This document shows, one piece after another, positions 1,451 to 50,085 of a stretch of DNA of 50,923 bases. A model generated the notes under the pieces. It saw only the letters and a program-made list of their open reading frames with translations, searched no databases and had not been told where the DNA came from. Positions within the stretch are counted from its first letter, which is position 1. Every line of letters begins with the position of its first letter. A program made the position numbers and the translations under genes. Source of the stretch: a virus (Duplodnaviria; Caudoviricetes); IMG/VR virus record IMGVR_UViG_3300023181_000011, positions 1-50,923 of that record. One strand, 5' to 3'.

Positions 1451-1534
1451 TGGTGAGAGCACGGGGGATCGAACCCCGAAGGACTAGCCAGCAGATTTTA
1501 AGTCTGCCGCGTTTACCAGTTTCGCCATGCTCTC
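1451..1534 (-). tRNA. tRNA-Leu(UAA) with encoded CCA
   Basis: Acceptor GAGAGCA/TGCTCTC-A-CCA, D loop TGGTAA, anticodon arm GCAGA-CTTAAAA-TCTGC, long variable arm, T arm CGGGG-TTCGATC-CCCCG. Confidence 0.95.
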
Positions 1535-29650: not shown

Positions 29651-29695
29651 AGGGAGGTGATCCAAATCTCGTAGCTGCTACGAAACAGCAGGCAT

Positions 29696-30333: not shown

Positions 30334-32000
30334 GATCCGCCCTTTCCGCTGATGTCACAAATATCGTGGGTCTCTACGTTCTCTTCAAACGTCTCACCCA
30401 GCTGCTTAACCGCTTCAGAATATTTAACGCTAGTAAGAGGCTGGCCCCCACGAGCACCATCAGGATAGACGGTAAAGCCGCGAAGGCGATGAGCGTAACT
30501 AGCAAGAGTCCCAGCGAAAGCATCAACAGTATCAGGGTTGTTAAGATCAGAACCCCACGAAGGTAAGTTAATAGTCGAACTAATCGACTGGTCCACATAG
30601 TCCTGAACGTCTGCTTGGAACTTGATCCGTTGTTCATAGTTTTCTGCTAGGTCAACAGCGCTTTCAATGTTGTCAGCGTCTGCACCGTAAAGGTTGATTA
30701 GCTCTTGGGCTGTTCCGTCAACGACGTACTGGTAATGCCAGCGAGTCCCTTTAAGGAAACGTCTCTTATAGGCAACGGCAAAGAGGGGTTCAACGCCTGT
30801 AGTTGTACCAGCAAGGATGCCAATTGTTCCGGTAGGTGCGATAGCTCGTGTGGCCACAGGTCGGGATATTCCAAGAGCAGCACTGAATCTTTCACTAACA
30901 ACTGTAGACTGCGCCTTATATACTGCAAGCCATCTGTGGAGTTCGGGACTGACATTATAGCCACTTCCTTTCTTCATCAACCATTCGTGCATACCCATAA
31001 GGCCAAGACCAAGGCGCCGATTCTTAGCACGTACCGCTGCGACCTTCTCGTACGGTAAGTCGGCCTTGAGTGTGCCACAGATAAGAAACTGCGTCGCAAG
31101 GGTGACGATGTCTTTGAACTCGTCGAGGCTGTCGATGCGTCCGAGGTTGATTGAGCCAAGGTTACAGACATCACTATCGTCTTCCGACGTAACCTCAGTA
31201 CAAGCGTTTCTGAGTGTTTCGCGCTCTTTATCAAAGAAATTGAAACTGAACCCCGGTTCAGCAGTACGAAGGGCTTGCGCCACGTTTTGTTTGAATACGT
31301 CACCAACTTCTCCTGTCCGCCAATAATCCAATAACCATTCTGTGTCGTAGTTAACACTGATGTTGGTCATGTCCATCGGTGCCGGGAAGTTAAAGTCTTG
31401 TTGCTTAATATCCCATAGCGATTGTCCAGTAGTCCCGACTGGCATTGACTCCCAATCTTTTGACTTTAAGAACGCTTGGATATCCCCGTGCTTCCAGTTC
31501 AGAGACGCGTAAATAGCTGACCGCCTTGAGCCCCCCTGCATGACCCGACGGCCAATCTCGTTCAGCATCTGCATCTTTGGTATTGGACCAGACGCTGTAC
31601 CCCCCGTCCGGCCTAAGTTCGCACCTTCCGGGCGATACACCGAATAGTCGACACCAATACCCCCGCCCGTCATCAAACAGCTCTCGGCTTTCCACGAAAG
31701 ATTTGCCCAATCTTGCCTCGTATCTTCCTCTGCCTTCAGCAGATAACAGTTGTTATAGAACTTAGCCTGCCGACCTGCATAGTACAGGTATCGGCCACCG
31801 GGGATAAACTTCATTTCTTGGACGTAGCGGATCAGCTGATCTACTTGGTCCTTTGGCATGTGCTCCGAACAGACTTCAGAAATCAGGACGTGTGATAGAT
31901 CGTTCCACGTCTCTGCACCTTCATGTGCGTACTTCTGCTTGAAGATGTCCTCACTGAACTTTGATCGGAATGCTGGGTTTTCGTTTGACCTAAAGCTCAA
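30321..32000 (-). CDS. nrdJ: Class II (adenosylcobalamin-dependent) ribonucleotide reductase
   Basis: PGGR..Y, NNCY, NACTE, CNLGS, RRLGLG.MG, IAPTGT, C-terminal Cys pair; no beta-subunit gene seen. Confidence 0.9.
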   Translation of the reverse strand: MSFRSNENPAFRSKFSEDIFKQKYAHEGAETWNDLSHVLISEVCSEHMPKDQVDQLIRYVQEMKFIPGGRYLYYAGRQAKFYNNCYLLKAEEDTRQDWANLSWKAESCLMTGGGIGVDYSVYRPEGANLGRTGGTASGPIPKMQMLNEIGRRVMQGGSRRSAIYASLNWKHGDIQAFLKSKDWESMPVGTTGQSLWDIKQQDFNFPAPMDMTNISVNYDTEWLLDYWRTGEVGDVFKQNVAQALRTAEPGFSFNFFDKERETLRNACTEVTSEDDSDVCNLGSINLGRIDSLDEFKDIVTLATQFLICGTLKADLPYEKVAAVRAKNRRLGLGLMGMHEWLMKKGSGYNVSPELHRWLAVYKAQSTVVSERFSAALGISRPVATRAIAPTGTIGILAGTTTGVEPLFAVAYKRRFLKGTRWHYQYVVDGTAQELINLYGADADNIESAVDLAENYEQRIKFQADVQDYVDQSISSTINLPSWGSDLNNPDTVDAFAGTLASYAHRLRGFTVYPDGARGGQPLTSVKYSEAVKQLGETFEENVETHDICDISGKGGSCGV

Positions 32001-34110: not shown

Positions 34111-34362
34111 TTAGTCTTCTGTGTCAGCCCGTTCGGAGTCTGCAACGTACAGGACGTCACTGGCCGAACAGATGAAGTTGATCGTCAGGGCTTCGTCAGC
34201 CTTGTCCAGAACGGCGTACAGATGGCCATTGAAGGCCGGATAGCCGAATGCCGGAACAACCTTCCCGTCCTTGAAGTGAAACTCGTACTCACGGGGTTCA
34301 GGGTCTTGAGTCGGCGCTTCATTAGATGTAATGCCGTACAGGGGGGTTACGTTATCGGTCAT
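34111..34362 (-). CDS. Hypothetical protein
   Basis: GAGG RBS; tight packing. Confidence 0.7.
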   Translation of the reverse strand: MTDNVTPLYGITSNEAPTQDPEPREYEFHFKDGKVVPAFGYPAFNGHLYAVLDKADEALTINFICSASDVLYVADSERADTED

Positions 34363-35222
34363 TAGAATGTTACCTCGTATTGATCTTTGGGTTCTTTGTT
34401 AACTTCGGTGAAGTGTACAGGCCCCTTAGCATAGAGGAACGTTCGGAGACCAATACCCCCATTTGAGTCTTTCCAGCAGTCGAACTTGAATGGACAGTAC
34501 GAACAGTTGACACCAAGGACTCTGTTACCAGACTTACCCATTTCCTCGTCTGAATAGCAACGAGGGGGCGGTGTTTCACTGTCTACAACTGCTTTAAGGT
34601 GTGCAATACGCCCGGGAATGTCGAGCGCAACGAGGTCTTCACGGGGCGCCTTAAGCAGAGCCAAGTGACCTTGTTCTTTTTCGACTGCGAGCCAAGCACC
34701 ATCAATGTCCCCCAAGGCGTTCGAATAACCCGCAAGCTGCTCATAGTAGCCGAAGGCATCGTTGTCTTGAAGAGTGCCGTCCTTAAACTTACGGAAAGCG
34801 TACTTGGATGCAGTCTTAACGTCAACAACGACCCCGTCAATAACGGCATCCATATGACCAACCACTCCATCCGTGACCACTTCTTCTTGTTCATGGGTTA
34901 CCTCGTGCCCAGCCTCTTTGGCCAGAAACAACATGATAGATTCCCATACGTCACCGAACAGGAACTTCATTTTGGTGTGTGCCGGAAGGACTTCCTTGGG
35001 GTGGTCCGATTTAACTTCGTACCAGACCTGTCGGTCTCCCTTACCAATCCCGGACATCCGGAGGGTACCCTTGACGCCCCTGCGGTCCTCAGCGAGCCTG
35101 TTGGCTACTGTGACTGCAATGGCACGTCCTAGGGCCTCCACGGCCTCCGGGTTGGACATATGACTGTCCTCCCCGAAGAGCGCTTCGATGTCTGGGATCA
35201 GTGTGTCAATGGTCTTAGAGAT
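34362..35222 (-). CDS. PD-(D/E)xK (Cas4-like) exonuclease; start either ATC at 35222 or ATG at 35159
   Basis: LRMS.IG, GH.DA..DG..VDVKTAS, Y..QL..Y, C.YC..K..CW. Confidence 0.88.
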   Translation of the reverse strand: MSKTIDTLIPDIEALFGEDSHMSNPEAVEALGRAIAVTVANRLAEDRRGVKGTLRMSGIGKGDRQVWYEVKSDHPKEVLPAHTKMKFLFGDVWESIMLFLAKEAGHEVTHEQEEVVTDGVVGHMDAVIDGVVVDVKTASKYAFRKFKDGTLQDNDAFGYYEQLAGYSNALGDIDGAWLAVEKEQGHLALLKAPREDLVALDIPGRIAHLKAVVDSETPPPRCYSDEEMGKSGNRVLGVNCSYCPFKFDCWKDSNGGIGLRTFLYAKGPVHFTEVNKEPKDQYEVTF

Positions 35223-43185: not shown

Positions 43186-44472
43186 TTAAAACTCTTCTGG
43201 ATGGTTAGCCCGGCGACGGGCAAGACGAGCGCGGGCCTCAGCAGCTAGTTGCTCATGACGACGAGCATTAGGCGCAGGTTGTGGGGCAGGGGGGAAGGGT
43301 TGTGGCGCCGGCATGTTCCAACGAGCCGGTGCAGCGATGTTAATCATTTCACCGTTACGGCGAACGCCAGCTTCTTGCAAGGGGTGCATGAACTGAGCCC
43401 AGTTGACTTGGTCCATAGCCGGGTTTGGCACTGCACGTTCAACTAGACGGTTTGCGTTAATAATGGCATCAATGTCAACACCTCGTGGGTCCCACTCCTC
43501 GTCAACAATCACTTGGGCTTCACGCCCAGTCAGCTTTTTTTCTTTGACAACCTTAGGTGCAGGCCAGTCAGAGCGGGCAAAGGCGACGTGTTGTGCAAGC
43601 CGCATGCCTTCCCACATCTGACGGTCAAAGCCTTTGCTGAACTCAACGAACGACGGGGCCAGTTCACCGAAGACGTCAGCTGTGAACGACTCCAAACCCA
43701 TCGAACTGAACGCCTGAACGACAGCGGACGGCGACTTGTAGCGGACAGCAGCCAGCTTGAGGCTGTGGATGACGTTGACCCAAGCCGTGATCTCGGCCTT
43801 GTCCATCGTGCCGCGGTGAGACCTGAACTCGACGGTTCCCTTAGACGGCAGGGACGCCCAGTTGAACGAGGCGTAACGGCGATCATTCGACACAAGGTTT
43901 TGCATCGAGTGAGCCCAGTTAGCCCGTCCGCCGCCAAGCCGCTGCTCTTGTTCAGCAACAGGGACGTTGTAGCAGGCATTGCGGGCAGCGTCGATCACAG
44001 CACCGGCATGAGACACCGGAAGACAGTGAACGTTGCCGCACCGCTCTTCGCCGCCAAAGGCGATCATTGGGGCTTCGAAGATCGTGTAAAGCGTGAACAG
44101 AGTGAAGATGTTGGTGAATGATAGACCGAAAGCGTTCATGTGAACGTGAACAGACGTCCGATAGCTGAAGACCGGCGTGAACTCTTTCTTGGTCAGATAG
44201 GCTTGGAGAGCATCCAGATCATCAGAAAGGCTACTATAGGGACGCCCACCACGACTGATAAACTCAATGCCATCACGAAGCGATCCATCTGCGACAGCTT
44301 GCCAAGGAAGGCTGTTCGGCGGCCTGAAGCCTTCGTGATCAGGCCCCAGCCCTTCCATTTCGATCTCAATACCATACGAGTCAGGATCGACTGGACCACT
44401 GACCCCGGTACCCTTGAAATAGTAGTCTCCGACGGACGTTGCCAGAAACTCTTGTTGTTGTTTGTCAACCAC
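43186..44472 (-). CDS. Putative amidoligase (glutamine synthetase/COOH-NH2 ligase fold); probable GTG start at 44472
   Basis: GIEIE, DGSLR.G.EF, RTSVHVH, RY...N, GTVEFR. Confidence 0.88.
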   Translation of the reverse strand: MVDKQQQEFLATSVGDYYFKGTGVSGPVDPDSYGIEIEMEGLGPDHEGFRPPNSLPWQAVADGSLRDGIEFISRGGRPYSSLSDDLDALQAYLTKKEFTPVFSYRTSVHVHMNAFGLSFTNIFTLFTLYTIFEAPMIAFGGEERCGNVHCLPVSHAGAVIDAARNACYNVPVAEQEQRLGGGRANWAHSMQNLVSNDRRYASFNWASLPSKGTVEFRSHRGTMDKAEITAWVNVIHSLKLAAVRYKSPSAVVQAFSSMGLESFTADVFGELAPSFVEFSKGFDRQMWEGMRLAQHVAFARSDWPAPKVVKEKKLTGREAQVIVDEEWDPRGVDIDAIINANRLVERAVPNPAMDQVNWAQFMHPLQEAGVRRNGEMINIAAPARWNMPAPQPFPPAPQPAPNARRHEQLAAEARARLARRRANHPEEF

Positions 44473-44476
44473 GGTG

Positions 44477-45130
44477 TTACGCCGCCTCGCAGATAAAAGG
44501 GATACCCTCTTCAGCAAGCACCTCCTTGAGGTATAGGTACTCGTCGTCGAGAGTGAAGTTTTCGAAGTTTTTGCCAATCGCCAAGCCCACAGGGGTCCCG
44601 CGATAGAACAGTTTGAACAGAGACTTGATCTTCATGTCACGGCCAACAGCGAACTGACTGCTGACACCAACCGAAATCCAGCCCTTGTTGTGAATCATAT
44701 CGAACGCTTCCTTGGGCGTCGGATACTTTTGCAACAACATGTCTTCAAGGGCTTGACCGTTCAGCGCTTGATTGCTGACGCGGTTACCGCTTGCTGAAAA
44801 CAGAGCACGGGTTTGAAGACCCTGAATCTGTTGACGAGCAGTGTTACGGACCATGAAGTCGGCCGTCAGACGGTACGGGTCGTTGATGTACCCGACGTGG
44901 AAGATGCGGAAGTTCAGCGCCGGGTCACCGATGGGGATCGACAACTTCTTGGCGTCAGTAATCTCATGACCTGTGTCACCGATCAGTGGGTACACAGACA
45001 CGTCAACCAGCATCGGCTTGGTCTTCGTGGCTTCACGCACCTCGCGCACAAGCACAGCCTTGTCTTCGAACGTCAGGATGGACCCACGTAGCCGCATCCG
45101 GGCCTGTTCAAGGGTGTCATAGACCAGCAT
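44477..45130 (-). CDS. Conserved hypothetical protein of the amidoligase cluster
   Basis: GY.N, R...RQ..QGL, YP, L.Y+G..VG pattern. Confidence 0.8.
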   Translation of the reverse strand: MLVYDTLEQARMRLRGSILTFEDKAVLVREVREATKTKPMLVDVSVYPLIGDTGHEITDAKKLSIPIGDPALNFRIFHVGYINDPYRLTADFMVRNTARQQIQGLQTRALFSASGNRVSNQALNGQALEDMLLQKYPTPKEAFDMIHNKGWISVGVSSQFAVGRDMKIKSLFKLFYRGTPVGLAIGKNFENFTLDDEYLYLKEVLAEEGIPFICEAA

Positions 45131-45325
45131 TATTCTAAATAATCTCCATGTTGATCGCGTTCTTGCAATGTAAATTCTCTGACGTCTCTAAGATCAATCT
45201 CGTCTTCAAGATGACAAAAAGCATTCCAAACACTGTCAAATCTTTTACAGCGTGAAGAACCTTTTTTATAAAAGACTGTCAGAAAATAGTAAGGTTTAAG
45301 CGGCCTGCTGGAACGGGATGGCAAG
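45130..45325 (-). CDS. Small AT-rich hypothetical protein (...KPYYFLTVF...); start uncertain
   Basis: Open frame fills the gap and is TAATG-coupled to the next gene; nearest canonical start is a TTG. Confidence 0.45.
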
Positions 45326-46123
45326 GTCAGTCTCAAAGTCGAACTTGTCGAACCAACGAACGTCATTGGTGTCGATGATCTGCTTGGCCGTGTCGCCGAA
45401 GATGTCAGCCGGAACGATGCCCTTGAAGTAGTCATTGGCACCCTTCATGGCCGCATCGAAGACCCATGCCTGAAGCTCAGGGTTGGCCAGCCATGCCGTC
45501 GAAGGCGTCCGATACTCCATGCCGTAAGGCTTGGCCCGGAAGGCACCAGCACCACCGTACATCGAACGACGACGGTTGTCGGGGTCCCAGATCAGGCTGT
45601 AGATGCCGATGTAGTAGTCCATCTGGACCGCCATGGCCCGGCACAGGTTGAAGTGTTCCTTGTCACCGTACGGGTTCTTGACGTCAGCACCCCAGCCGAT
45701 GTGGATGTGACCAGCAGCGGTCCGGAACGTTTGGAGACCGTTGGGGCGCGGGTTGGCCTCACCGGTGTACGCATTGTAGTCCGGGTCACAGCCCAGTTCG
45801 AGCGACTCACCCGGCTGCATGCCGAGGTACTCAGGGTCGAACTCCATGAACGGGACGCCGTGGGCAATCTCGAAGATGGGCGGCAGTTGGTCAACCAGAT
45901 CGTCCATGACGGACTTGATGTTGGCCATGAACTCGGTACGGGTCCGGCTCGGGTTGATGTTGATCTCGGCAGCCAAGCCGTCGACTTGAATGGCACCGCC
46001 GCTGACAGCGAACGGATTCTTCTTGTCGCCCGGGATCAGGCCGTGACAGGAGACGGGGGACCCAGTGATAGATTCCCGCAGGAACATTTCAGGGTCGGCA
46101 CCGATGGTAATGATGGGTTGCAT
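45296..46123 (-). CDS. phiEco32-like COOH-NH2 ligase type 2
   Basis: IGADPE.F, DG.A.E.N, GCDPD.NAY, R.A.GHIH.G, RR..YG.AG.FR.K.YG.EYR. Confidence 0.92.
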   Translation of the reverse strand: MQPIITIGADPEMFLRESITGSPVSCHGLIPGDKKNPFAVSGGAIQVDGLAAEININPSRTRTEFMANIKSVMDDLVDQLPPIFEIAHGVPFMEFDPEYLGMQPGESLELGCDPDYNAYTGEANPRPNGLQTFRTAAGHIHIGWGADVKNPYGDKEHFNLCRAMAVQMDYYIGIYSLIWDPDNRRRSMYGGAGAFRAKPYGMEYRTPSTAWLANPELQAWVFDAAMKGANDYFKGIVPADIFGDTAKQIIDTNDVRWFDKFDFETDLAIPFQQAA

Positions 46124-46127
46124 TCGC

Positions 46128-47606
46128 TTATGCTTTCGCTTGTTGTTGAAGGTTTGGATCGTTCAGGCACTCAGCACACACAAAGACTTTCTTTGTGTCC
46201 TTAGACGACAGGAGCCTGAACTCACCCTTGTCGTCACCAGTAATGTTACACTCGCCCCAGCCGCACTTGTGGCCAGTCAGTTGCCTGAACTTGGCCTTTG
46301 TGATCTTCTTTCCGTCAGGGCCTTCACGAGTGTCGAAAAGAGACGAGCGCTTAGACTCAGCTACTTGCTTTTTTTTAAAGTCGCCGACAAGGATGACATT
46401 GTTAGCAGCCACCTTGGCCCGGAGTTCAGCGTCGGTGTCACCGAGCAGGAACGGAAGCTCGCTGTCGATCTTGTTGGTAACTTCAGCGGGTGCGTTGTCG
46501 TCTTCAGTCTTCGACCCCTTACCCATCTTTCCGTATTCCCAGCCCTCTTGGTACTGAGACCACTTCGGATAGTCTACTTGGTAGTGGAAGGGGTTGTTGT
46601 AAGTCTGACCCTTTGCGGCGTTCTCCCCGTCAGAAAAGCCCAGAGCCCAGACATCCCACTTGACGTCTTCGAACTCGGCACTTCGCATGTCGTGGATGTC
46701 GGAGGGCTGGTATCCTTGGTGGTCTCCATCACGCAGGCTGGTTGCGGCTGCGCTTGAGGCTGGACTTGAGTTGTTTCCGCCATTGGCGGTTTGTGATGCC
46801 CTTTGGTCTCGTTGGTTGACCCAGTCTTCCCAAGTTGCTCGGCCGTTGTACGGGGGACGGTGAGGCTGGTGTACGGGAAAATTTTGGACACTTTTACCCT
46901 TGACTTCGAGTCGTTGGGGCTTCTCTTGGAAGACGTGCTTGCTGTCCGGGATTTCCCAAGTGAACAGTGTGTCGACAGGAAGTTCGTAAATCTTCTTGTT
47001 GAAGTCAACACCGTTGCGGTCAAGAATCCAACGCAGCATGCCCGGCTCGGATGCCCAGTAAAGGGTATCACAGTCGGCGGCCATGGCGTAGAACAGTGGC
47101 CGTTCCTTGTTACGCACGATGCTGATCGTGTTTTCTTCGTGGTCGTACACGGTCAGAGCCCATGCACCTGCCGCGAGGGCCACAGCGTCCTTGACAGACG
47201 ACAGCTCGTGGATGCTGTTGGCAAGCTGTTCACTGTCAGTGTCGCCTTCAGTGTTCTTGGCCATGTCCCGCAGACAGCCGTAGTCCAAGGTGCCGTTGTG
47301 GGCCACCATGTACCGGCCAGTCCAGAACGGGTGAGCGTTGACGACATTGACCTTGCCGCGAGTTGCGGCGCGGTTGTGGCCCATCAAGACCTTGGCCCCC
47401 GTAACCAGAAGCGCATCGCAACGCTTCATTTGCATGAGGTTTTCAGGACTGATGGGGGACTTCAGCAGACGGACTTCCTTGCCGTGTGTGATAGACCCGA
47501 TGCCTGTGCTGTCCACGCCGCGAAGGTAGTCAGCGTGAAGAAGTTGTTTGAAGACGTTAACGTCACGGGCAATCAGATTACCGGCAACTCCTACTAGACC
47601 GCAGAT
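46128..47606 (-). CDS. Class II (Ntn) glutamine amidotransferase with C-terminal extension; ATC start
   Basis: (M)CGLVG...RG.DSTG, GH.RAAT.G, NAHPF, HNGT, TDSE; AGGAG 8 nt before ATC-TGC-GGT. Confidence 0.9.
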   Translation of the reverse strand: MCGLVGVAGNLIARDVNVFKQLLHADYLRGVDSTGIGSITHGKEVRLLKSPISPENLMQMKRCDALLVTGAKVLMGHNRAATRGKVNVVNAHPFWTGRYMVAHNGTLDYGCLRDMAKNTEGDTDSEQLANSIHELSSVKDAVALAAGAWALTVYDHEENTISIVRNKERPLFYAMAADCDTLYWASEPGMLRWILDRNGVDFNKKIYELPVDTLFTWEIPDSKHVFQEKPQRLEVKGKSVQNFPVHQPHRPPYNGRATWEDWVNQRDQRASQTANGGNNSSPASSAAATSLRDGDHQGYQPSDIHDMRSAEFEDVKWDVWALGFSDGENAAKGQTYNNPFHYQVDYPKWSQYQEGWEYGKMGKGSKTEDDNAPAEVTNKIDSELPFLLGDTDAELRAKVAANNVILVGDFKKKQVAESKRSSLFDTREGPDGKKITKAKFRQLTGHKCGWGECNITGDDKGEFRLLSSKDTKKVFVCAECLNDPNLQQQAKA

Positions 47607-48280
47607 GGTGCACTCTCCTGTGCTGTTTTGTCGACGTCGAAGTCGAACAGTTCATTGAAGACGGACCAAAAGTATTCGGCCGTACCTGTTTTCCCCGGGT
47701 ATTCGGGGTGTGGTTGGAAGCATAGGCACTGAGTGTCCTGATACCAGACCACTTCAGCGTCAACGTCGCCGATGTTGGGGACCTGTGTGACACCGGCAGC
47801 GTGCTTGGTGGTGCACAGAGACGTCCGTTCACCCTTACCAGCGATGGCGATGAGGTTGCCAAGCTTGAGGTTAGGGATCATCTGCTGATGGTGGGTGGAC
47901 GTGACAAGGGCTTGAGTACCGTTGCGCAGGTCCGTCAACCAGTGGTTGGTAGTGTGATGGTTCACATCTTGCCACAACTTACCGCCATTTAAGACGTTAA
48001 GCAGTTGAGCACCCCGGCAGATGCCAAGCATAGGGATGCCGAAGTTCTTGGCCGCCTTGAACAGCTCGACTTCAGCTTCGTCACGCCTCGTGTTGATCCC
48101 GTATGCCCCGGCGATTGGCTCACCGTACAGCTTGGGGTCAATGTCAGCACCACCTGTGAACACCACGATGTCAGCCATCATGAGGTCACGAGTGCCGCGC
48201 CACCCGGCGTCAAGGAACATACCCGCCACGAGGCTATCGAAGCCCCCGGCGATGTACACCTGATTGGCTTTACTGTCCAT
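47594..48280 (-). CDS. Class I GATase / peptidase C26 (gamma-glutamyl hydrolase family)
   Basis: GGADI.P..Y, RD..E, GICRGAQ, S.HHQ, Q.HPE. Confidence 0.92.
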   Translation of the reverse strand: MDSKANQVYIAGGFDSLVAGMFLDAGWRGTRDLMMADIVVFTGGADIDPKLYGEPIAGAYGINTRRDEAEVELFKAAKNFGIPMLGICRGAQLLNVLNGGKLWQDVNHHTTNHWLTDLRNGTQALVTSTHHQQMIPNLKLGNLIAIAGKGERTSLCTTKHAAGVTQVPNIGDVDAEVVWYQDTQCLCFQPHPEYPGKTGTAEYFWSVFNELFDFDVDKTAQESAPSAV

Positions 48281-49397
48281 TGGCGAACCGGGCCATGCCT
48301 TCGATGTCGGCGGCGGTCAGCGTACGCTCGTACAAGTACAGGGTGGACGAACCGGGGTGATTCGTATTACCTGTCCGAAGCGTCTCGGTGAACCCGGCAG
48401 CTGCCAGATTCTTCGGTGTCTGAACGCCATGCCCGTTTCGTTGGCTGTTGTTGAGGATGAACACAACAACGTCACCAACTTCCCAGCTTCCAAGGAACTT
48501 GACATTCTTCGAAGCATCGTTGTAGATGTTGTAACCCGGGAGTTGCTTACCGGGTGCCATCGTCTTCCACAGCTTCAAGCCAAGCCCGGGGCCACAGTCC
48601 ATACCGGTGAGGATATGATAGTTCGCACCGGACGACTTGCTGTCCATGTACGCCTTGTATTGTGTGGCGTAGTGGCCCGCGTACTTGACAACAGCATCGA
48701 AGTCAACGACAGCAGCCGCTTCGAAGTGATCGTCCTTGGCCTTCGACACAGGGGCGCGGTCTTGACGAACCCACAGGCCAGCGGGTGTACGCTTGGAGTT
48801 GGGGAACTTCTCGGCCGAGATACAGATGCCCGGGGACTTGTAGTCCTTGACCGTTGCGCCGCCACGAGTCTGTCCACCCTTCTTGATAAAGGCCTGAAGG
48901 CTGTACGTGCTTTCGGCAGCAGCCCGATAGTCCTTGACGTATCGTTGCCATTGACCAATGTAATACGTATCAGTCGTACCCTTGATCTTGGATTCGTAGT
49001 TTTCAGCCGACCGAATGTACGTATGGTACTGCTGGTAATCGTACGAGCATTCCCATTCGGCCTGCCACTCGGCTTCGGTCTTCTTACCACCATTGGTGGC
49101 CTTCTGAGGCTGAAGGATCGACGCACCACAGCAGCTGGGGAAACCAACGGCCTTGAAGCCCGGCTCCCAGTCAGAAACCTGTGCCTCGTCGATGATGTCC
49201 TTCACCGCTTCGACGGCCTTGCGTGTCGTGTCCTTAACAGCTTCGACAGCTGCCTTGGCAACGGTCTTGACCGCACCAACGATGTTCGGATTGTCAGGCT
49301 TAACCCAGCGCCACACAGTGTTCCCCTTCAGGGTTTTGATTTGAGCCCTCACGAGGCCTTTGGCGGCCATCGCTTTGGCCAGTTCGGTGTCTTCCAT
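48270..49397 (-). CDS. Hypothetical protein, FPxCCG family (long form)
   Basis: Codon bias, AAGGA RBS; paralogous to 50354..50716. Confidence 0.8.
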   Translation of the reverse strand: MEDTELAKAMAAKGLVRAQIKTLKGNTVWRWVKPDNPNIVGAVKTVAKAAVEAVKDTTRKAVEAVKDIIDEAQVSDWEPGFKAVGFPSCCGASILQPQKATNGGKKTEAEWQAEWECSYDYQQYHTYIRSAENYESKIKGTTDTYYIGQWQRYVKDYRAAAESTYSLQAFIKKGGQTRGGATVKDYKSPGICISAEKFPNSKRTPAGLWVRQDRAPVSKAKDDHFEAAAVVDFDAVVKYAGHYATQYKAYMDSKSSGANYHILTGMDCGPGLGLKLWKTMAPGKQLPGYNIYNDASKNVKFLGSWEVGDVVVFILNNSQRNGHGVQTPKNLAAAGFTETLRTGNTNHPGSSTLYLYERTLTAADIEGMARFANGQ

Positions 49398-49753
49398 TAG
49401 GCTGCTTCCTTGTTAAACCAGTCGCCCGATGCGATAGGTTGTTTGTTGATGTCGGCATGATAGATGTACACCTGCACACCGCTGAAGCCACCAACGGACA
49501 CAGTTTCCCGTGTGTACAGGGACGGCACGCCTTCGTACGCATCCAACTCTGCCCACTGGCTGTCTTCGACGTCGAACAGATCACCGACGACGTAACCAGC
49601 ACCGGGACGAATGCCGGGGTACCAGCCAAGGTCGAACAGTTGGTGGCCCATCAGCTTAACATTGCTGACACAGGGTGCCTTGCCGTCGAGGCCGAAGCGA
49701 GCACTGTTGGGGTGACCGGCGCGCAGGGTTCCGTAAACGAAAAGCTTCTTCAC
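49397..49753 (-). CDS. Gamma-glutamylcyclotransferase (AIG2-like)
   Basis: LFVYGTLR.G..N, G.YP, V.G, LD.YEG.P.LY.R; GTG start. Confidence 0.92.
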   Translation of the reverse strand: MKKLFVYGTLRAGHPNSARFGLDGKAPCVSNVKLMGHQLFDLGWYPGIRPGAGYVVGDLFDVEDSQWAELDAYEGVPSLYTRETVSVGGFSGVQVYIYHADINKQPIASGDWFNKEAA

Positions 49754-50085
49754 AGCCACTTCCTTTGCTTGTCCATGTCCCAAACAATGCGATCCACGGC
49801 CGTTCGTGTCGCAGAGGAGTCAAGCAGAACAGTTTTACCGTCAATGAACACGATGGTCACGACGCCTTGACGCATGGGGTGCGTGTACTGGTCACCCGCC
49901 TTGGGCTCACGGGGTGCACGCTTGGTGACAGTGGCGGCCCGTGCCGACAACGCATTCGAGGAAAGGTTTAAACCTTCTACGATGCCCGCCTTGAAATAGT
50001 GAGAGCCCCTGTCATCCGAGGTCTTGGTATAGACCACAGTAACTTCGTCACCCACCTTCAGTGAATTGAAATCGGTGTCATTCAT
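49750..50085 (-). CDS. Early hypothetical protein with two small beta domains
   Basis: ATGA/GTGA overlaps; LKVGDEV and PKAGDQY motifs. Confidence 0.75.
   Translation of the reverse strand: MNDTDFNSLKVGDEVTVVYTKTSDDRGSHYFKAGIVEGLNLSSNALSARAATVTKRAPREPKAGDQYTHPMRQGVVTIVFIDGKTVLLDSSATRTAVDRIVWDMDKQRKWL

Follow-up and report, generated by a model that had tools for sequence, protein, structure and literature searches.

At which codon does translation of a phage gene begin when the triplet directly ahead of its predicted catalytic cysteine codon is ATC? The question is raised by a gene for a glutamine amidotransferase (GATase) on the minus strand of IMG/VR record IMGVR_UViG_3300023181_000011, a complete phage genome of 50,923 bp with direct terminal repeats that was assembled from a metagenome and is held in a viral contig collection; this whole stretch of DNA is referred to below as the window. 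A previous examination of the letters alone (the sequence-only reading) had proposed that the gene encodes an N-terminal nucleophile (Ntn) amidotransferase and has to initiate at the ATC. Based on the anatomy of the start, homology of the protein, contigs from public sequencing runs, and the start codons of homologous genes, we consider it likely that a class-II Ntn amidotransferase is encoded at 46128-47606 (minus strand), that its translation begins at AUC, and that the gene is one case of a family-wide habit.

Anatomy of the ATC start and identity of the protein

The features of the start region and of the gene, in the direction of transcription, are as follows.

47652..47654, minus strand: in-frame TGA that closes the amidotransferase frame 16 codons 5' of the ATC, from the reading frame
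47615..47619, minus strand: Shine-Dalgarno (SD) core AGGAG, read directly; the 8-nt spacing to the ATC is AGTGCACC
47604..47606, minus strand: ATC, the codon at which the Ntn glutamine amidotransferase is inferred to initiate; it aligns with the Met of homologues
47601..47603, minus strand: TGC, codon of the predicted catalytic N-terminal Cys (Cys1 once Met is removed), alignment column C2
47517..47603, minus strand: codons 2-30, omitted by the automatic gene call, which fit the family consensus MCGLVGVAGxLxxKDxxxFxxLLxxDxLRGxDSTG
47514..47516, minus strand: GTG used as the start by open reading frame (ORF) callers, by alignment really the Val codon within the conserved RG(V)DSTG motif
46128..47606, minus strand: amidotransferase coding sequence, 492 codons, open from the ATC to 46128

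The AGGAG, the 8-nt spacer, and the ATC followed by TGC GGT CTA GTA GGA were found as previously described, with the correction that the gene lies on the minus strand. Translation from the ATC gives I-CGLVGVAGNLIARDVNVFKQLLHADYLRGVDSTG. We read all 15 codons between the TGA and the ATC; none is ATG, GTG, or TTG, as the sequence-only reading had stated, and none is another ATH codon, CTG, or ACG. Because this interval offers neither a canonical nor a near-cognate codon, ORF callers begin at the GTG at 47516, and the resulting model (P0001) has 462 amino acids, begins with VDSTG, and, again as stated previously, lacks the catalytic Cys. Direct reading of the sequence identified no purine-rich SD site ahead of this GTG. 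The AGGAG site of the window has an anti-SD duplex energy of -7.8 kcal/mol, and the fold of the mRNA at 47561-47660 was no more stable than that of shuffled sequences (z = 0.14).

The window protein matches the Pfam families GATase_6 (62.6 bits; cut-off, 27), GATase_7 (33.5 bits; cut-off, 25), and GATase_4 (31.6 bits; cut-off, 23), and positions 1-2 of the PHROG 4736 and 18128 profiles pair with residues 1-2 of the ATC-started protein. When a 43-member family profile was compared with solved structures, its "mC" aligned to M1-C2 of Escherichia coli GlmS and, in PurF, to Cys1 of the mature chains, with E values for GlmS and PurF of 5e-17 to 1e-13. In the alignment of the 43 sequences (A1), column C2 is nearly invariant, R79, N104, G105, and D124 are invariant, and the GHNR, NGT, and DSE motifs match HTRWAT, HNG, and DTE of GlmS, respectively. 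From GlmS and PurF, roles in the glutamine site are known for the Arg of GHNR, the Asn-Gly oxyanion pair, and the Asp of DSE. Because the profiles align the Cys encoded by TGC to the Cys of GlmS and PurF, it would serve as the catalytic nucleophile at the N terminus of a class-II (Ntn) amidotransferase, which agrees with the earlier assignment of Cys as residue 1. On these comparisons, it is homology rather than motif counting that places the ATC start beyond chance.

The class-II GATase domain is N-terminal (about residues 1-240), while the C-terminal ~250 residues (about 250-492; 46128-46860, minus strand) had zero Pfam family matches and contain no recognizable synthase domain. Two nearly invariant Cys pairs, C448/C451 and C477/C480, close the C-terminal half, and their arrangement suggests a zinc ribbon. 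Possible acceptor partners of the predicted glutaminase are the products of the neighbouring COOH-NH2 ligase and Amidoligase_2 genes.

The base itself was checked in assembled (Logan) contigs of public runs, not in raw reads, for three runs (X1, X2, and X3) from three studies. The ATC at 47604-47606 and the SD core were identical in the contigs of all three. X1 is possibly the source run of the window, the X2 contig spans 374 nt with 4 differences to the window, and the X3 contig spans 476 nt with 25 differences (about 5%). Among the X3 differences listed, 17 fall in the gene and 12 of these are synonymous; the three in codons 2-30 (47589, 47565, and 47517) are all synonymous third-position changes in the ATC frame. 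Because all changes in codons 2-30 are synonymous, the part of the gene that is skipped by gene callers is under coding constraint, up to the ATC.

Start codons in the family and in cultured phages

Among 117 database homologues, the majority start with MCG. Five (P0036, P0038, P0070, P0084, and P0112) are called with leaders that end in Ile-Cys, and several, including the nearest relative, P0002 (71% identity), are called from internal Met codons. A megablast search of 45200-48400 against phage records identified no close DNA relative, and a single-protein scan of viral contigs gave none that was confirmed. A first, alignment-based scan of viral contigs covered the best 80 of 271 relatives, and its patterns included [MI]CG. 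Because such patterns could bias the sample toward Met and Ile starts, we also ran start-blind scans in which alignments begin 20 codons past the Cys, two on viral contigs (best 80 of 422 and best 80 of 504) and one on metagenome contigs (best 80 of 369). Together, the scans gave 321 loci, of which 13 were unusable (no motif or contig end); removal of identical sequences gave 196 unique genes, and 195 were counted because one (L272) had a false motif.

In these 195 unique genes, the codon before the Cys codon is ATG in 126, ATT in 26, ATC in 16 (window included), TTG in 17, and GTG in 10, while ATA, CTG, and ACG were not observed. Thus, ATT and ATC account for 42 of the 195 genes (about 22%), compared with 27 for GTG and TTG together, and the tabulation proposed in the sequence-only reading came out strongly positive. 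The ATT and ATC genes are spread over numerous phage lineages and hosts. ATT or ATC was present in 28 of 118 genes reached by the start-blind viral scans, in 7 of 52 genes found solely by the metagenome scan, and in 38 of 165 clusters at 80% identity. In the viral-contig set, 33 of 34 ATT/ATC genes are complete open frames of 356-501 codons, and the remaining gene leaves its contig and is open over the 155 codons present. At 25 of these 34 loci, there is an upstream in-frame stop 4-31 codons away with no canonical start after it; at the other nine, a canonical in-frame start is located 4-25 codons 5'. A single-pattern scan of bacterial and archaeal genome contigs returned two matches, one of them on a 50-kb contig, and the amidotransferase subfamily thus appears to be almost confined to phages. 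The base being real and ATT/ATC recurring in homologues, the earlier argument that initiation of a Cys-bearing protein must sit at the codon before TGC is supported.

An SD core of at least 4 nt precedes all 42 ATT/ATC starts with a median spacing of 8 nt. Cores of at least 5 nt were present at 29 of 42 ATT/ATC genes versus 59 of 126 ATG genes (Fisher p = 0.013, relatedness ignored), and the mean anti-SD duplex energies were -8.16 and -6.64 kcal/mol, respectively (Mann-Whitney p = 6e-5, phylogeny ignored). As a control, we used the COOH-NH2 ligase gene next to the amidotransferase at these loci; in 138 of its 141 ORFs, we could locate the conserved GxDPE motif. A canonical start lies 3-16 codons ahead of this motif in 136 of the 138 (ATG, 124; GTG, 10; TTG, 2) and an ATG lies 17-20 codons ahead of it in the other two, so that none of the 138 needs a non-canonical start.

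We also inspected 23 records of cultured phages, which are not a random sample. Eleven have ATT or ATC before the Cys codon, as follows, and the other twelve have ATG or TTG.

O4, K4, and Klyazma: ATC; the annotated coding sequence (CDS) begins downstream and lacks the Cys
FBPa8, VPp1, WFI101126, E20-1, and BUCT695: ATT; the annotated CDS begins downstream and lacks the Cys
phiEco32 (EU330206), SU10 (KM044272), and Bas93 (PQ850593): ATT; the CDS is annotated from the ATT

In the eight truncated records (NC_031274.1, MW929175.1, ON857932.1, KJ936628.1, NC_070991.1, OP293233.1, OP125547.1, and NC_070977.1), among which those of O4, WFI101126, and BUCT695 are RefSeq entries, the annotated CDS starts 30-342 nt downstream of the ATT or ATC. 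Because the CDS of phiEco32, SU10, and Bas93 are annotated from ATT, GenBank has listed an ATT start for the gene from the phiEco32 record onward.

The ATT-containing start region is itself conserved in part of the family. An 80-nt stretch of Kuravirus with the ATT is present in 97 phage records, in 68 of them at ≥99% identity. Aeromonas phage BUCT695 (Libingvirus) and Kuravirus share the ATT within a nearly identical island of ~55 nt, although the flanks have diverged and the proteins are 52% identical. In five sister genera whose proteins are about as similar (48-56% identity), the start is ATG and the leaders are unrelated. The island (L331:175-235, L338:175-235, and L332) holds a 9-codon upstream ORF, MKG[F/L]TLQ[V/A]D-stop, in which the SD lies, followed by AAA and ATT TGT GGC; a small AAGGG/CCCTT hairpin is possible within it. 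This island may be a conserved element of translational control. Retention of the start within a lineage was also observed for L043 (ATC), L050 (ATC), and L057 (ATT).

Mechanism and alternative explanations

In the pathway that we propose, the AGGAG 8 nt 5' would set the AUC in the P site, where initiator fMet-tRNA would be placed, and deformylation and removal of Met would then expose the catalytic Cys1; Cys is a permitted residue after Met for methionine aminopeptidase. Initiation may be helped by translation of the upstream gene ending 10 nt further on. The yield per mRNA would be low, because AUC is a weak start that is discriminated against by initiation factor 3 (IF3), and would partly be offset by the good SD. 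Initiation by fMet-tRNA at AUU, AUC, and AUA is established and reaches a few percent of that at AUG. In E. coli reporters, AUA, AUC, AUU, and CUG reached 1-2% of AUG, and an N-terminal Met was recovered from an AUC start (bioRxiv 10.1101/063800). According to PMC5499595, the AUU/AUC of infC is the target of IF3 autoregulation, and IF3 discriminates against AUU and AUC. Low or IF3-sensitive expression of the amidotransferase is plausible. The sole tRNA gene of the window is that for tRNA-Leu(UAA) (1451-1534, minus strand); in the window, we found no unusual phage-encoded initiator tRNA and no RNA family besides this tRNA.

In the window, the TAG of the upstream gene for a peptidase C26-like protein (47596-47594) falls in amidotransferase codons 4-5, giving a 13-nt overlap with the amidotransferase in the -1 frame relative to that gene, and the same 13-nt overlap occurs in relatives with ATT, ATG, GTG, and TTG starts. 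This TAG is located 10 nt beyond the A of the ATC, and reinitiation could therefore contribute in the window. As a general mechanism, translational coupling was rejected: the stop of an upstream ORF is close by at 25 of 40 ATT/ATC starts compared with 111 of 119 ATG starts, a distribution that counts against our account of these starts in so far as it would rely on coupling. Because a nearby upstream stop is less common at ATT/ATC than at ATG starts, termination-reinitiation is not the general route.

Three alternatives would do away with an AUC start altogether. An assembly or sequencing error that conceals a true ATG would gain from the metagenomic origin of the window and from the comparison having been made with contigs rather than raw reads, but ATC is retained in three assemblies from three runs, including a variant diverged by ~5%, and ATT or ATC recurs in 41 further unique genes as well as in the records of 11 cultured phages, which were sequenced independently, so that we regard the chance of such an error as close to negligible. 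Expression solely from the GTG at 47516, as a glutaminase-dead protein without the Cys, or decay of the gene into a pseudogene is very unlikely. The GTG start is the model of the automatic callers (P0001), and eight GenBank/RefSeq records of relatives carry a start of this kind, but this GTG is part of the conserved RGxDSTG motif and lacks an SD, whereas the ATC is preceded by a good one; codons 2-30 fit the consensus and vary synonymously in X3, and the 492-codon frame is intact. Neither of the two outcomes by which the sequence-only reading could have failed, an ATG in the reads or a pseudogene, thus found support in these data. Propeptide cleavage exposes the Cys of Bacillus subtilis PurF, and a longer precursor, arising either through -1 frameshifting out of the C26 gene or through initiation further upstream, might likewise expose Cys1 by self-cleavage. 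The -1 frame with its 13-nt overlap, the five homologues called with short in-frame leaders ending in Ile-Cys, and the 9 of 34 ATT/ATC loci with an in-frame canonical start 4-25 codons 5' are in agreement with this idea. Yet direct reading of the 48 nt from the TGA to the ATC identified no X XXY YYZ slippery site and no ATG, GTG, TTG, or near-cognate codon; 25 of the 34 loci have a stop 4-31 codons 5' with no start after it, the upstream gene mostly ends 1-56 nt before the start and in various frames, and the SD spacing points to the ATT or ATC itself. We therefore regard a self-cleaved precursor as highly improbable.

With translation from AUC as the preferred reading, several observations nevertheless count against it or against a purpose behind it. 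Detection of the SU10 amidotransferase by mass spectrometry (9 peptides; 23.7% coverage) is in line with the preferred reading, but the peptides are not mapped to the N-terminus and the expected mass of 63.8 kDa suits the truncated model (PMC4281155). At the 1-2% seen in reporters, too little protein may be made for the enzyme to be of use, unless the context helps. The ATT:ATC:ATA ratio at the start (26:16:0) resembles internal Ile usage in these genes (473:375:64); zero ATA in 42 is weakly surprising under ordinary Ile usage (P = 0.047), and a simple cause of its absence may be that in ATA-TGY a new ATG, out of frame, would arise two bases further on. A quick maximum-likelihood tree was built from 79 N-terminal domains, 20 of them ATT/ATC rows, and on it the ATT/ATC state needs at least 15 changes, 8 of which are forced by well-supported branches; with shuffled labels, the mean was 17.8, and a value of 15 or lower was reached in 24 of 500 shuffles. 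Because these changes are barely fewer than with shuffled labels, the state is scattered and labile. In addition, near-identical proteins have different starts (O4, ATC versus PA11/TC6, TTG; L065, ATT versus L074, ATG), and this lability argues against strong selection for ATT/ATC as such. Within Paundecimvirus, near-identical amidotransferases (L066/L082 of O4 versus L067/L326 of PA11 and TC6) start with ATC and TTG, and that of FBPa8 starts with ATT, with unrelated sequence just 5', which suggests that the start region is a hotspot of replacement.

The use of non-canonical starts by other genes of these phages counts in the same direction. A second, nuclease-like gene of the window (34362-35222, minus strand) has ATC at 35222-35220 opposite the Met of its homologues, which have 279-299 residues and begin with MSKSIDTLI where the window reads ISKTIDTLI. 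There is no canonical start between its upstream stop and the ATC, the automatic call begins at an ATG (35159) 21 codons downstream, and the gene has a weak SD, AAGG, at a 4-nt spacing; its product has a conserved C-terminal Cys cluster. The sequence-only reading had named two further ATC candidates, of which 35222 is, thus, supported by the N termini of homologues. The other, at 29666 (GGGAGGTG then ATC; 29660-29674, plus strand), was rejected, as it reads ATC TCG TAG, a two-codon frame at a gene end rather than a gene start. P0002 and P0131 are encoded on one 49,163-bp contig, and the calls for the same two genes, amidotransferase and nuclease, are N-terminally truncated there; this phage probably shares both non-canonical starts of the window. 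In a relative of the window, G001 (the record of L002; 50,777 bp), the primase-helicase gene at about 22977 (plus strand; loci L344 and L343) has an ATA directly after a TAA with GAGGTGG 5', and appears to be started at this ATA because zinc-finger CxxC pairs are encoded ahead of the earliest canonical start in frame, a GTG that lies 28 codons in. This ATA is followed by AGC, in agreement with avoidance of ATA-TGY (n = 1). A comparison of all open frames of the window with G001, the nearest retrievable relative, identified no further hidden start in the window; the other flags raised were mostly shadow frames of conserved genes, and those at 30354, 32711, 38824, and 41383 (all minus strand) have ordinary ATG or TTG starts. 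The second ATC gene of the window and the ATA in its relative suggest that near-cognate starts extend beyond the amidotransferase.

These observations bear on whether the AUC start has a regulatory meaning. It is possible, although on the unlikely side, that the ATC start is real and has none: with the start pinned next to Cys1, a mutated ATG cannot be replaced by another start, and ATT and ATC would linger as mildly deleterious or neutral variants where little enzyme is needed. Consistent with such drift, starts flip between near-identical phages and are scattered on the tree, all five start codons occur in the family, other genes of the phage clade use AUH starts, and the ATT:ATC ratio is like that of ordinary codon use. 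Drift would not readily give 42 ATT and ATC against 27 GTG and TTG, though the latter are far better starts and equally one mutation away from ATG, nor the absence of ATA, CTG, and ACG, although a single transition turns ATG into ATA or ACG (the out-of-frame ATG may explain the gap for ATA). It also leaves aside the stronger SD sites at ATT/ATC starts and the near identity of leader and ATT between Kuravirus and Libingvirus. That ATT and ATC outnumber GTG and TTG, that their SD sites are stronger, and that the Kuravirus leader is conserved suggest instead that ATT/ATC has been selected for dose or timing, a suggestion that is weakened by the lability of the start, by the other AUH-start genes, and by the possibility that a Cys1-fixed start is unable to move and weak variants linger. 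In its specific form, AUU/AUC with a strong SD would be a selected translational sensor of the infC kind, so that the enzyme would be made only when per-ribosome IF3 proofreading falls, either in the course of infection or in particular states of the host; we put this forward as a tentative and rather doubtful proposal. The sequence-only reading had advanced a related idea of deliberately low-level or IF3-conditional expression.

Gene cluster, known counterparts, and significance

Iyer et al. (2009) are said to have described a phage amidoligase cluster of the phiEco32 type. As cited in PMC10580990, this cluster has an Ntn GATase beside COOH-NH2 ligase, Amidoligase_2, class-I GATase/peptidase C26, and AIG2/GGACT genes (Iyer et al. 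2009). The window has this composition, with all members on the minus strand.

49397-49783, minus strand: GGACT (AIG2/GGACT protein), by family match
48270-49397, minus strand: 375-amino-acid ORF within the cluster, zero Pfam or PHROG matches
47594..48280, minus strand: peptidase C26/class-I GATase-like gene upstream of the amidotransferase, by family match
45296..46123, minus strand: phiEco32-like COOH-NH2 ligase type 2, downstream gene with an ATG start, by family match; the control gene above
Between the COOH-NH2 ligase and Amidoligase_2, minus strand: 217-amino-acid ORF
43186-44577, minus strand: Amidoligase_2, by family match

The "glutamine amidotransferase" phi32_83 of phiEco32 and its orthologues SU10_085 and Bas93_0070 belong to the same protein family (tblastn) and the same amidoligase cluster. 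Like the window gene, the phiEco32/Kuravirus gene has a non-canonical codon before the Cys codon and an SD 5'. The two differ in that the window has ATC rather than ATT, shares about 34% identity over the N-terminal domain, and lacks the 9-codon upstream ORF, its start overlapping the end of the preceding gene instead; moreover, the window phage has a 51-kb genome and is near Zobellviridae-like podophages, while Kuravirus genomes have 77 kb. The closest cultured counterparts are podophages of ~45-50 kb with the same gene and kind of start, namely, Pseudomonas phages O4 and K4 (ATC) and FBPa8 (ATT), Vibrio phage VPp1 (ATT), and Klebsiella phage Klyazma (ATC). The Pseudomonas and Vibrio phages are 37-40% identical to the window over the N-terminal half and Klyazma is 33.5% identical, and in their records the CDS is annotated 42-162 nt downstream, giving proteins without the Cys.

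Among cellular systems, the E. coli genes infC (IF3) and pcnB are confirmed bacterial AUU-start genes in which, as in the window, a near-cognate AUY replaces AUG. In infC, the AUY is kept across species as the sensor in the IF3 autoregulatory loop, whereas the product of the window gene is a metabolic or modification enzyme, and ~22% of its family have AUY. The cellular enzymes GlmS, PurF, and AsnB share with the window protein the N-terminal Cys nucleophile, the fold family by profile, and the conserved Arg, Asn-Gly, and Asp, and differ from it in that the window protein has no recognizable synthase domain; their genes in E. coli start at ATG.

AUY initiation as such (infC and pcnB) and an ATT start annotated in phiEco32-like phages are already known. 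What may be new is the family-wide frequency of ~22%, above that of GTG and TTG together, and the systematic misannotation. In the main texts of the literature searched, we found no published description of an AUY-start pattern in amidotransferases; the phiEco32 genome paper (Savalia et al. 2008) and Iyer et al. (2009) may mention the ATT. The deposited proteins of at least eight cultured phages and the automatic call for the window lack the catalytic residue, and functional or structural work based on them would begin with a dead enzyme.

Because the Cys1 constraint fixes the true start, the family reveals how frequent near-cognate starts are in phages, which in ordinary genes stay hidden because callers slide to the next ATG. 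As the ATT is a feature of the E. coli phages phiEco32, SU10, and Bas90-94 of the BASEL collection, reporter, profiling, and codon-swap tests would be straightforward. If AUU/AUC with a strong SD did act as a sensor, it would time or dose a glutaminase that is harmful or wasteful when freely made, and the amidotransferases would be the second natural gene family, after infC, with AUY initiation as a conserved regulatory device, one that would be tractable through E. coli Kuravirus.

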